Shown here: piece after piece, positions 35,965-40,769 of the stretch
Layout: each line of letters opens with the position of its first letter
Position numbering within the stretch: the first letter of the stretch is position 1
Assembly (NCBI RefSeq): GCF_003334785.1
Contig: NZ_QOWV01000001.1
Length of the DNA stretch: 64,000 nt
DNA from: Escherichia coli
GTDB taxonomy: Bacteria > Pseudomonadota > Gammaproteobacteria > Enterobacterales > Enterobacteriaceae
Strand: one strand, 5' to 3'
Notes under the pieces: model-generated
What the model saw: only the letters and a program-made list of their open reading frames with translations
Databases searched by the model: none
What the model was told of the DNA's origin: nothing
Program-made: the position numbers and the translations under genes

Positions 35965-36093
35965 TTGCATATTATTTTTTCTTCACACCTATACACTAAG
36001 GCTATAAATGATATAGTGGTTATAGTTAGCACCTTTTTTATTATTAAATCGTATTAGTCACCCGCCAGGTGTGACGAAAAAACGATGTTCTGA

Positions 36094-37092
<999 letters not shown>

Positions 37093-37422
37093 TTTCTTGC
37101 GTTATTTTCGGCACCTTTTATGTAGCGAAGGTGCCGGAATATATTCTCTTTTGTTACTTATTTCTATACCGTGCACAATATTTTTATCCCTCATATTTAT
37201 AGGGTAAATTACCTGTAAAGTAGTGTCTAATTACCCGCCTCGCAAACTCCAGTTTTCAAATATCTATTTCAGGTCAAAAGATTGAATTATTCACTGGAGA
37301 CGATTCGTAAATTCGCTGGATTTTTGACTAAAGTTTCTTTAGGATTTGTCTCATCGTATGATTAATTACACCAATCGTTCAACGTCTTGCTGATAAGTGA
37401 TGGCGATTATATGAGGTTAGCA

Positions 37423-37551
37423 ATGCCTTCTGGAAATCAGGAACCCCGCCGCGATCCTGAATTAAAACGTAAAGCCTGGCTGGCGGTTTTTCTTGGTTCT
37501 GCACTTTTCTGGGTGGTTGTCGCACTGCTGATTTGGAAAGTGTGGGGATAA
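37423..37551 (+). CDS. ymiA: Small membrane protein YmiA (42 aa; 46 aa if ATG 37411 is used)
   Basis: ATG 37423 with GAGG SD 6 nt upstream; MPSGNQEPRRDPELKRKAWLAVFLGSALFWVVVALLIWKVWG, one TM helix; too short for the ORF track. Confidence 0.5.
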   Translation: MPSGNQEPRRDPELKRKAWLAVFLGSALFWVVVALLIWKVWG

Positions 37552-37553
37552 CT

Positions 37554-37721
37554 ATGGTCGGTCAGGAGCAACTGGAGTCGTCACCATTATGCCAGCATAG
37601 TGACAATGAAACAGAAACGAAACGGGAATGTTCCGTCGTTATTCCAGACGACTGGCAACTAACATCGCAGCAGCAAGCCTTTATAGAACTGTTTGCTGAA
37701 GATGATCAGCCGAAACAATAA
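37554..37721 (+). CDS. yciX: Small acidic protein YciX (55 aa)
   Basis: ATG 37554 three nt after ymiA stop with GGGGA SD; MVGQEQLESSPLCQHSDNETETKRE...; ORF-track start 37533 is a TTG extension. Confidence 0.5.
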   Translation: MVGQEQLESSPLCQHSDNETETKRECSVVIPDDWQLTSQQQAFIELFAEDDQPKQ

Positions 37722-37834
37722 TTATCATCATTCTTATTACCCATTTTTAATGAATTAAAGGGCTTTTAATACACCGCAGCAATAACAGCTTGAGTTATCT
37801 CAACACAAAATAATAACCGTTAAGGGTGTAGCCT

Positions 37835-37930
37835 ATGATCAACACAAATATGAAATATTGGTCCTGGATGGGCGCGTTTTCTCTGTCGATGCTCTTCTGG
37901 GCCGAACTCCTCTGGATCATTACTCACTGA
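37835..37930 (+). CDS. Candidate 31-aa Trp-rich hydrophobic small protein (possibly YmiC)
   Basis: ATG 37835 to TGA 37928-37930, MINTNMKYWSWMGAFSLSMLFWAELLWIITH; followed by a hairpin plus T-tract; weak SD. Confidence 0.35.
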   Translation: MINTNMKYWSWMGAFSLSMLFWAELLWIITH

Positions 37931-37936
37931 TCCTTG

Positions 37937-37967
37937 ACCCCGCTGCGGCGGGGTTGTCATTTGCTTT
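37937..37967 (+). terminator. Putative rho-independent terminator upstream of the acnA promoter
   Basis: ccccgc tgcg gcgggg hairpin followed by ttgtcatttgcttt. Confidence 0.55.
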
Positions 37968-38093
37968 GCCACAAGGTTTCTCCTCTTTTATCAATTTGGG
38001 TTGTTATCAAATCGTTACGCGATGTTTGTGTTATCTTTAATATTCACCCTGAAGAGAATCAGGGCTTCGCAACCCTGTCATTAAGGAGGAGCT

Positions 38094-40769
38094 ATGTCGT
38101 CAACCCTACGAGAAGCCAGTAAGGACACGTTGCAGGCCAAAGATAAAACTTACCACTACTACAGCCTGCCGCTTGCTGCTAAATCACTGGGCGATATCAC
38201 CCGTCTACCCAAGTCACTCAAAGTTTTGCTCGAAAACCTGCTGCGCTGGCAGGATGGTAACTCGGTTACCGAAGAGGATATCCACGCGCTGGCAGGATGG
38301 CTGAAAAATGCCCATGCTGACCGTGAAATTGCCTACCGCCCGGCAAGGGTGCTGATGCAGGACTTTACCGGCGTACCTGCCGTTGTTGATCTGGCGGCAA
38401 TGCGCGAAGCGGTTAAACGCCTCGGCGGCGATACTGCAAAGGTTAACCCGCTCTCACCGGTCGACCTGGTCATTGACCACTCGGTGACCGTCGATCGTTT
38501 TGGTGATGATGAGGCATTTGAAGAAAACGTACGCCTGGAAATGGAGCGCAACCACGAACGTTATGTGTTCCTGAAATGGGGAAAGCAAGCGTTCAGTCGG
38601 TTTAGCGTCGTGCCGCCAGGCACAGGCATTTGCCATCAGGTTAACCTCGAATATCTCGGCAAAGCAGTGTGGAGTGAATTGCAGGACGGTGAATGGATTG
38701 CTTATCCGGATACACTCGTTGGTACTGACTCGCACACCACCATGATCAACGGCCTTGGCGTGCTGGGGTGGGGCGTTGGTGGGATCGAAGCAGAAGCCGC
38801 AATGTTAGGCCAGCCGGTTTCCATGCTTATCCCGGATGTAGTGGGCTTCAAACTTACCGGAAAATTACGTGAAGGTATTACCGCCACAGACCTGGTTCTC
38901 ACTGTTACCCAAATGCTGCGCAAACATGGCGTGGTGGGGAAATTCGTCGAATTTTATGGTGATGGTCTGGATTCACTACCGTTGGCGGATCGCGCCACCA
39001 TTGCCAATATGTCGCCAGAATATGGTGCCACCTGTGGCTTCTTCCCAATCGATGCTGTAACCCTCGATTACATGCGTTTAAGCGGGCGCAGCGAAGATCA
39101 GGTCGAGTTGGTCGAAAAATATGCCAAAGCGCAGGGCATGTGGCGTAACCCGGGCGATGAACCAATTTTTACCAGTACGTTAGAACTGGATATGAATGAC
39201 GTTGAAGCGAGCCTGGCAGGGCCTAAACGCCCACAGGATCGCGTTGCACTGCCCGATGTACCAAAAGCATTTGCCGCCAGTAACGAACTGGAAGTGAATG
39301 CCACGCATAAAGATCGCCAGCCGGTCGATTATGTTATGAACGGACATCAGTATCAGTTACCTGATGGCGCTGTGGTCATTGCTGCGATAACCTCGTGCAC
39401 CAACACCTCTAACCCAAGTGTGCTGATGGCCGCAGGCTTGCTGGCGAAAAAAGCCGTAACTCTGGGCCTCAAGCGGCAACCATGGGTCAAAGCGTCGCTG
39501 GCACCGGGTTCGAAAGTCGTTTCTGATTATCTGGCAAAAGCGAAACTGACACCGTATCTCGACGAACTGGGGTTTAACCTTGTGGGATACGGTTGTACCA
39601 CCTGTATTGGTAACTCTGGGCCGCTGCCCGATCCTATCGAAACGGCAATCAAAAAAGGCGATTTAACCGTCGGTGCGGTGCTGTCCGGCAACCGTAACTT
39701 TGAAGGCCGTATCCATCCGCTGGTTAAAACTAACTGGCTGGCCTCGCCGCCGCTGGTGGTTGCCTATGCGCTGGCGGGAAATATGAATATCAACCTGGCT
39801 TCTGAGCCTATCGGCCATGATCGCAAAGGCGATCCGGTTTATCTGAAAGATATCTGGCCATCGGCACAAGAAATTGCCCGTGCGGTAGAACAAGTCTCCA
39901 CAGAAATGTTCCGCAAAGAGTACGCAGAAGTTTTTGAAGGCACAGCAGAGTGGAAGGGAATTAACGTCACACGATCCGATACCTACGGTTGGCAGGAGGA
40001 CTCAACCTATATTCGCTTATCGCCTTTCTTTGATGAAATGCAGGCAACACCAGCACCAGTGGAAGATATTCACGGTGCGCGGATCCTCGCAATGCTGGGG
40101 GATTCAGTCACCACTGACCATATCTCTCCGGCGGGCAGTATTAAGCCCGACAGCCCAGCGGGTCGATATCTACAAGGTCGGGGTGTTGAGCGAAAAGACT
40201 TTAACTCCTACGGTTCGCGGCGTGGTAACCATGAAGTGATGATGCGCGGCACCTTCGCCAATATTCGCATCCGTAATGAAATGGTGCCTGGCGTTGAAGG
40301 GGGGATGACGCGGCATTTACCTGACAGCGACGTAGTCTCTATTTATGATGCTGCGATGCGCTATAAGCAGGAGCAAACGCCGCTGGCGGTGATTGCCGGG
40401 AAAGAGTATGGATCAGGCTCCAGTCGTGACTGGGCGGCAAAAGGTCCGCGTCTGCTTGGTATTCGTGTGGTGATTGCCGAATCGTTTGAACGAATTCACC
40501 GTTCGAATTTAATTGGCATGGGCATCCTGCCGCTGGAATTTCCGCAAGGCGTAACGCGTAAAACGTTAGGGCTAACCGGGGAAGAGAAGATTGATATTGG
40601 CGATCTGCAAAACCTACAACCCGGCGCGACGGTTCCGGTGACGCTTACGCGCGCGGATGGTAGCCAGGAAGTCGTACCCTGCCGTTGTCGTATCGACACC
40701 GCGACGGAGTTGACCTACTACCAGAACGACGGCATTTTGCATTATGTCATTCGTAATATGTTGAAGTAA
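38094..40769 (+). CDS. acnA: Aconitate hydratase A
   Basis: 891 aa [35 protein letters not shown]...; Fe-S cluster cysteines. Confidence 0.97.

Follow-up and report, generated by a model that had tools for sequence, protein, structure and literature searches.

The ymiA-yciX-ymiC small-protein operon between cysB and acnA of Escherichia coli and its conserved terminator, probably leaky in K-12

A set of small-protein genes between cysB and acnA of E. coli K-12 was named the ymiA-yciX-ymiC operon by Vellappan et al. In their work, the region upstream of ymiA drives a PhoQ-dependent reporter at low Mg2+, a condition under which YmiA and YmiC are also induced, and a reporter for the stretch immediately before ymiC has negligible activity. 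The same study places GFP-YmiA and a GFP fusion of YmiC at the membrane, describes a longer lag phase on overexpression of YmiA, and gives no phenotype for the ymiA and ymiC deletions in the screen it presents. YmiC was detected by chromosomal tagging and tetracycline ribosome profiling (VanOrsdel et al.), the YmiA start was mapped to MRLAMP by ribosome profiling (Weaver et al.), and targeted mass spectrometry (PRM) of YmiA (46 aa) gave roughly 1000–3000 copies per cell. Studies of Salmonella and Klebsiella have connected the same genes with RcsB (as a repressor), Cpx and OmpR, and in Salmonella the RcsB motif TGAGACAAATCCTA lies at −13 to +1 of the mapped ymiA transcription start site (TSS). 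Salmonella is also the source of STnc180, which was represented by 5 cDNAs in an Hfq co-immunoprecipitation, with a five-fold enrichment; northerns with STnc180 probes revealed species of 500–2000 nt, listed as about 2000 nt, that were judged to be processed mRNA (Sittka et al.).

The window analysed here (the whole stretch of E. coli DNA that was examined, 64,000 nucleotides long) contains the same locus. The interval from cysB (36118–37092) to acnA (38094 onward) is 1001 nt long, is 100% identical to that of E. coli K-12 BW2952 and has a match in 5422 of 5426 complete E. coli genomes. Between cysB and acnA it has the sequence, coordinates and gene order of K-12 ymiA-yciX-ymiC, with no difference found, and the published properties of that operon therefore apply to it directly. 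RefSeq annotation on the identical K-12 DNA provides three genes:

37411–37551, + strand: ymiA, encoding a single-pass membrane protein of the tail-anchored type, 46 aa (or 42 aa from the ATG at 37423)
37554–37721, + strand: yciX, encoding a 55-aa acidic protein, apparently coupled to ymiA through the Shine–Dalgarno sequence (SD) GGGGA at 37544–37548 in the last ymiA codons
37835–37930, + strand: ymiC, encoding a 31-aa Trp-rich small membrane protein, with the SD AAGGG at 37822–37826

The first two are b4522 and b4523 in E. coli K-12. The three tiny ORFs and the hairpin behind them that the initial annotation had picked out from the DNA are all present at these positions, and its names for ymiA and yciX are those of RefSeq on identical DNA. 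The locus is thus an annotated and published small-protein operon with its terminator, and is already known.

That the ORFs are more than chance is indicated by a coding signature found in the annotated frames only. A comparative set was built of 80 loci around cysB, one per species, from genera that include Escherichia, Citrobacter, Enterobacter, Klebsiella, Kosakonia, Buttiauxella, Erwinia and Pantoea. The gene order cysB-ymiA-yciX-ymiC-acnA is kept in most of the 80 species, and all three ORFs are under purifying selection across about 50 enterobacterial genera, which together with the RefSeq genes at the same places upholds the proposal that they are real. The ratio of non-synonymous to synonymous differences per site (pN/pS) is 0.24 for YmiA, 0.29 for the C-terminal motif of YciX and 0.35 for YmiC in the annotated frames, compared with 1.0–1.8 when the same DNA is read in either of the remaining frames. 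Differences at codon positions 1/2/3 amount to 0.20/0.14/0.49 in the YmiA core, 0.27/0.21/0.56 in the YciX C-terminal motif and 0.33/0.17/0.49 in the YmiC core. Separately, a tblastn search of Escherichia albertii detects no ymiA, yciX or ymiC, acnA beginning there 263 nt past cysB (locus L004), and the Klebsiella loci keep a divergent ymiA without yciX and ymiC.

YmiA matches the NCBIfam model NF000536 with 96.8 bits (cut-off 30), the model aligning to residues 5–46. The protein has one hydrophobic stretch (residues 24–42, mean Kyte–Doolittle hydropathy of 2.54) with a basic KRK just before it, fitting the family trait of a single C-terminal transmembrane helix after a basic segment, and the single transmembrane segment proposed earlier is in line with both this stretch and the published localization of GFP-YmiA. 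The start codon is a more complex matter. A 42-aa product from the SD and ATG at 37423 had been proposed, and this form is in frame with a start that is conserved across genera, but the annotation and E. coli ribosome profiling give 46 aa from the ATG at 37411 (MRLAMPSG...), of which the 42-aa form is the shorter version. The ATG at 37423, with a GAGG SD 6 nt upstream, is present in 51 of 51 distinct alignable enterobacterial sequences, in a set whose selection pattern itself required Met at this position. At 37411 the same sequences carry ATG (34), GTG (3) or, in the other 14, ACG, ATC, AAG, GCG or GAG. Across the 11 codons before 37423, differences are spread evenly over the three codon positions (0.19/0.21/0.19); there is no periodicity and synonymous divergence is low, in contrast to the codons downstream of 37423. 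The comparative data favour 37423 as the ancestral YmiA start, as it is the sole start conserved across genera, it is preceded by no codon periodicity and the NF000536 model begins at this Met; profiling in E. coli supports 37411, and both starts may be used.

Directly after ymiA, on DNA identical to the window, RefSeq places yciX as WP_001297116.1. The initial annotation correctly saw the two genes as adjacent and YciX as an acidic protein of 55 aa (12 acidic and 3 basic residues, net charge −9), although the spacer (CT) between the ymiA TAA and the yciX ATG is 2 nt rather than 3 nt. The junction has the form TGGGGN-stop-N1–3-ATG in almost every genus, from which the last YmiA codons appear to serve as the yciX SD, and by its start–stop anatomy ymiA-yciX is read as a case of termination–reinitiation translational coupling. 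A YciX homologue coupled in this way follows ymiA in 67 loci, including those of Erwinia and Pantoea, where tblastn had missed homologues. The motif IPxSWxLxxxQxxFI is nearly invariant and the N-terminal half is poorly conserved, and no NCBIfam or Pfam model matches YciX. AlphaFold2, run with 49 homologues, predicts a disordered N-terminal half and one confident helix at residues 38–49 (pLDDT about 92 at residues 31–40), a combination that fits a peptide that folds on a partner. When a YciX profile was compared with the PDB, the sole match was a weak one, of residues 36–54 to one helix of staphylococcal Protein A (QRNAFIQSLKDD-like), and was regarded as due to chance or composition.

The third ORF, which the initial annotation had assigned to YmiC with some uncertainty, is indeed ymiC: its product is identical to the published 31-aa protein (VanOrsdel et al.; MG1655 1335572–1335667) and scores 66.3 bits with NCBIfam NF041484 (cut-off 42). 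It is Trp-rich as described, with 4 Trp in 31 aa, and published ribosome profiling and epitope tagging are both positive for it. The YmiC core, from KYWSW to the stop, is always 25 codons long. The gene lies 113 nt downstream of yciX, has its own SD and is preceded by two conserved leader elements:

37768–37784, + strand: single-stranded block AATACACCGCAGCAATA, conserved in the intergenic alignment
37790–37803, + strand: small hairpin TTGAG/CTCAA, present in every genus with stem sequences that differ and pairing that is kept

Several unrelated strains carry an IS1 insertion at the ymiC 3′ end, as in E. coli EC931 (L082:1135–1832, at about window position 37927), which alters the last ymiC codon(s) and splits ymiC from the terminator and acnA.

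Two elements lie directly upstream of ymiA:

37340–37353, + strand: RcsB box TAGGATTTGTCTCA; the likely −10 (TAGGAT) and the predicted ymiA TSS (about 37352) both overlap it
37354–37410, + strand: ymiA 5′ leader, with nucleotide-level conservation and no codon periodicity

The reverse complement of the box TAGGATTTGTCTCA matches the Salmonella ymiA motif TGAGACAAATCCTA exactly, and the block that carries the box hardly varies among 57 loci. This identity, together with homology to the mapped Salmonella start, makes it likely that the E. coli ymiA TSS is near 37352. More broadly, positions 37230–37425 comprise about 200 nt of non-coding DNA that is more conserved across genera than the coding DNA, and the transcribed leader within this block contains a direct repeat, CGATTGT (CAATCGT/CGATTAT in E. 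coli). RNAalifold gave no consensus fold for the 5′ leader; an RNA fold consensus and an Rfam match were looked for in the whole block and neither was found, leaving its conservation accounted for only at the RcsB box. A search for the PhoP box (T/G)GTTTA-N5-(T/G)GTTTA near −35 revealed no canonical box upstream of ymiA, the best candidate having 3 mismatches, which is background level given 175 equally good sites in the 64-kb window. PhoQ control may therefore be indirect. The dedicated small-protein transcription unit that had been proposed matches the reporters of Vellappan et al., which were active upstream of ymiA and negligible upstream of ymiC.

The last element of the unit follows ymiC:

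37936–37955, + strand: stem of an intrinsic-terminator hairpin with the loop TGCG, followed by an interrupted U-tract at 37954–37968, identified by pattern scan and fold

The terminator scan places the hairpin at 37935–37956, with the stem 5 nt after the ymiC stop. It has 8–9 pairs, 6 of them G-C, and a tetraloop, with a folding energy of about −18 kcal/mol and z = −2.3 versus shuffles. A terminator follows ymiC in nearly all genera, and the stem sequence varies (ACCCCGC, ACCTCGC, ACCCGAC, CGCCCCG and others) with the pairing kept: stem positions are paired in 90.7% of cells, versus 37–61% with partner columns slid, compensatory changes occur in 5 of 7 stem pairs, and none of 500 shuffles reaches the observed score. 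The GC hairpin that had been proposed is thus conserved and covarying, but the T-tract that was to follow it is interrupted in K-12, with the tail TTGTCATTTGCTTTG. The U-tract is UUGUCAUUUGC in the K-12 allele, UUUUUUGUUU in relatives and UUUUCAUUU in another E. coli allele; it is weaker in K-12 than in the relatives, and in most genera the terminator is strong and its U-tract perfect. Terminator alleles include K-12 TTGTCATTT, TTTTCATTT and a 14-bp deletion. Among the 5426 complete E. coli genomes, 3328 (about 61%) have the K-12-type allele and 1068 (about 20%) have the UUUUCAUUU allele with its better U-tract. The 14-bp deletion (window 37946–37959), carried by 1037 genomes (about 19%), ST131 among them, removes the 3′ arm of the terminator so that no hairpin is left (−4.7 kcal/mol).

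A 3′ end at the hairpin (about 37967) was sought in published Term-seq data. In two sorted lists of Adams et al. 2021, 1333823 is followed by 1335835 and there is nothing near 1335700, where the hairpin lies, which is weak negative evidence as the operon is poorly expressed in those media. The nearest end called in those lists, MG1655 1335835, corresponds to window position 38098, 4 nt into acnA, and is Rho-independent. A stem-loop CAGGGCTTCGCAACCCTG at 38060–38098 lies just before the acnA SD. The other entry, an 'orphan' 3′ end at MG1655 1333823 in the same lists, corresponds to about window position 36086, after a hairpin just upstream of cysB, and suggests that RNA of the cysB leader is terminated prematurely or processed. 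For the operon itself, the degraded U-tract indicates that termination in K-12 is probably partial and that some transcripts continue into acnA. Hence, the claim that the unit ends before acnA is supported by the conserved terminator across genera but is probably only partly true in E. coli, given the weak K-12 U-tract, the lack of an end at the hairpin in those Term-seq lists, the deletion alleles in about 19% of genomes and the Salmonella northern species of about 2000 nt, which exceeds the roughly 620-nt operon RNA.

The ymiC segment is also the site of the sole Rfam match in the region, and a candidate Fur site lies just before it:

37762–37964, + strand: match to Rfam RF02079 (STnc180), 198 bits versus a gathering score of 50
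37714–37741, no strand assigned: Fur-box-like cluster (candidate) at the yciX stop, three overlapping matches with 5/19 mismatches to GATAATGATAATCATTATC

The STnc180 match coincides with the ymiC leader, ORF and terminator, a coincidence repeated in 16 of 18 other genera tested. RNAalifold, applied to 31 sequences from many genera, recovered the leader hairpin and the terminator alone; among these sequences there was no covariation support for the STnc180 Rfam helices inside the ORF or for the long-range ACACC/GGGUGU helix. Sequestration of the SD by this last helix was rejected, its arms being almost invariant, its pairing breaking where they vary and the helix not being recovered. Given the coincidence with ymiC across genera, the long northern bands and a fold that supports just the leader hairpin and terminator, STnc180 is best read as a segment of a small-protein mRNA. 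The candidate cluster falls on the 'acnA -371' Fur cluster predicted by Chen et al. 2007, and the 64-kb window as a whole has just 9 Fur-like matches at the 5/19-mismatch level. A weak promoter-like pair, TTATCA-18-TTTAAT, would start an RNA near 37758, close to the 5′ end of STnc180.

Other readings of this segment were weighed against that of a small-protein gene within an operon. If the third ORF were a chance occurrence, the true frame could be one of the longer overlapping ORFs, 37858–38040 or 37934–38122, which exist mechanically and have nothing else in their favour; within ymiC these frames have pN/pS of 1.0–1.5 and no coding signature, both ORFs cross the terminator and the acnA promoter region, and YmiC has been detected by tagging, leaving this reading with practically no chance of being correct. 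A further reason for rejecting both ORFs as spurious is that each contains the 14-bp indel of the 1037 E. coli genomes, whose length is not divisible by three and which therefore shifts their frames. Alternatively, 37762–37964 might be an independent Hfq-binding small RNA, non-coding or dual-function, either made from its own promoter (possibly Fur-repressed via 37714–37741) or cut from the 3′ end of the operon. Such an RNA would account for the 198-bit match, for the conserved leader block and hairpin, for the five-fold Hfq enrichment (from just 5 reads) and for the overlap of the Fur-like cluster with the weak promoter-like pair. However, the northerns contain the 500–2000 nt species instead of a small RNA, the published reporter just upstream of ymiC was negligible, the Rfam helices within the ORF are not supported by covariation, and conservation within the segment follows codon periodicity, and we consider an independent small RNA very unlikely.

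The proximity of ymiC to the hairpin permits another view, in which the two are mainly a translated uORF attenuator for acnA: a ribosome stopping 5 nt before the stem would hinder the hairpin, and ymiC translation would set the RNA that reaches acnA from transcripts that cross ymiC, whether they come from the ymiA promoter or a distal acnA promoter. The latter promoter was reportedly mapped by Cunningham and colleagues (1997) about 407 nt upstream of acnA, which would fall inside yciX, and if so its transcripts must cross both ymiC and the hairpin. This position, the ymiC stop 5 nt before the stem, the weak K-12 U-tract and the commonness of hairpin-less alleles all speak for attenuation, as does the inclusion of ymiC-acnA among candidate uORF-dependent loci by Adams et al. 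2021. On the other hand, neither the single-sequence fold nor the alignment fold contains an antiterminator competing with the terminator, and no antiterminator pairing is conserved, RNAalifold keeping the leader hairpin and terminator alone. Moreover, the terminator of most genera is a strong one whose U-tract is perfect, YmiC is under purifying selection and is membrane-localized, as a pure leader peptide need not be, and the Term-seq end behind the uORF listing is at 38098 and not at the hairpin. An attenuator as the main function is therefore unlikely. A related proposal, which we regard as equally improbable, is that the ymiC stop and the hairpin act together as a valve that is sensitive to translation, can be tuned by evolution and sits between an envelope-stress operon and acnA, the gene of the stress aconitase. 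If this were true, lineages with intact (about 20%), weakened K-12-type (about 61%) and deleted ST131-type (about 19%) alleles would differ in how far PhoQ/Rcs/Cpx transcription reaches into acnA.

The reading that we hold with considerable confidence is that of a known, conserved enterobacterial operon under envelope-stress control, encoding two single-pass membrane peptides and a coupled acidic cytoplasmic peptide and closed by a conserved terminator that is weakened in E. coli. The genes, their expression, membrane localization and PhoQ dependence, as well as the start–stop anatomy and the conservation of the terminator, are published or were established here; what is inferred is where exactly transcription starts, how leaky the terminator is and what the proteins do. 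Transcription would begin at roughly 37352, about 60–70 nt upstream of ymiA, where the RcsB box overlaps the start and the surrounding regulatory DNA is highly conserved over about 200 nt. The unit may be read as an envelope-stress operon on account of its PhoQ-dependent induction at low Mg2+ and the RcsB, Cpx and OmpR links in Salmonella and Klebsiella. Ribosomes that finish ymiA would re-initiate on yciX via the SD in the last two ymiA codons, and ymiC would be translated from its own SD behind the conserved leader hairpin. The RNA would end at the hairpin terminator, which in K-12 would be leaky with partial run-on into acnA. The products are two single-pass inner-membrane proteins, YmiA and YmiC, and a mostly disordered acidic cytoplasmic peptide, YciX, with one conserved helix. 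Our best guess, by analogy with MgrB, MgtS and AcrZ, is a role for the peptides in binding and modulating larger envelope proteins, and YciX possibly docks through its helix on the basic cytoplasmic segment of YmiA. As the ymiA and ymiC deletions were without phenotype in the published screen, these protein functions are unsupported guesses.

As a discovery the locus matters little, the genes being annotated, their expression validated and the operon published. Possibly useful by-products are the YmiA start, with 42 aa as the ancestral form and 46 aa by profiling in E. coli, and the finding that the Rfam small-RNA family STnc180 is really a segment of a small-protein mRNA. In addition, the difference between terminator alleles within E. 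coli is a natural experiment on read-through into acnA, a stress gene of the TCA cycle.

Compared with known systems, YmiA and YmiC resemble MgrB and MgtS in being very small single-pass inner-membrane proteins that are PhoQ-dependent at low Mg2+. Unlike those proteins, YmiC has no known partner or phenotype, YmiA has only the lag phase on overexpression, and upstream of ymiA there is no canonical PhoP box. The putatively coupled ymiA-yciX pair shares with translationally coupled pairs, a general bacterial mechanism, a stop and start 2 nt apart and an SD inside the upstream ORF, both kept across genera. Salmonella STnc180 has a full-length 198-bit counterpart here, in the same place between cysB and acnA, but whereas Rfam treats it as a small-RNA gene, in this locus and in 16 other genera it is an ORF under purifying selection together with its terminator. 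Finally, the ymiC region is reminiscent of mdtU-mdtJI, as presented in Adams et al. 2021, in having a small translated ORF upstream of a larger gene and an RNA 3′ end nearby. However, mdtU acts through Rho, whereas the element behind ymiC is a conserved intrinsic hairpin with no alternative structure, and the product of the ORF is itself conserved.
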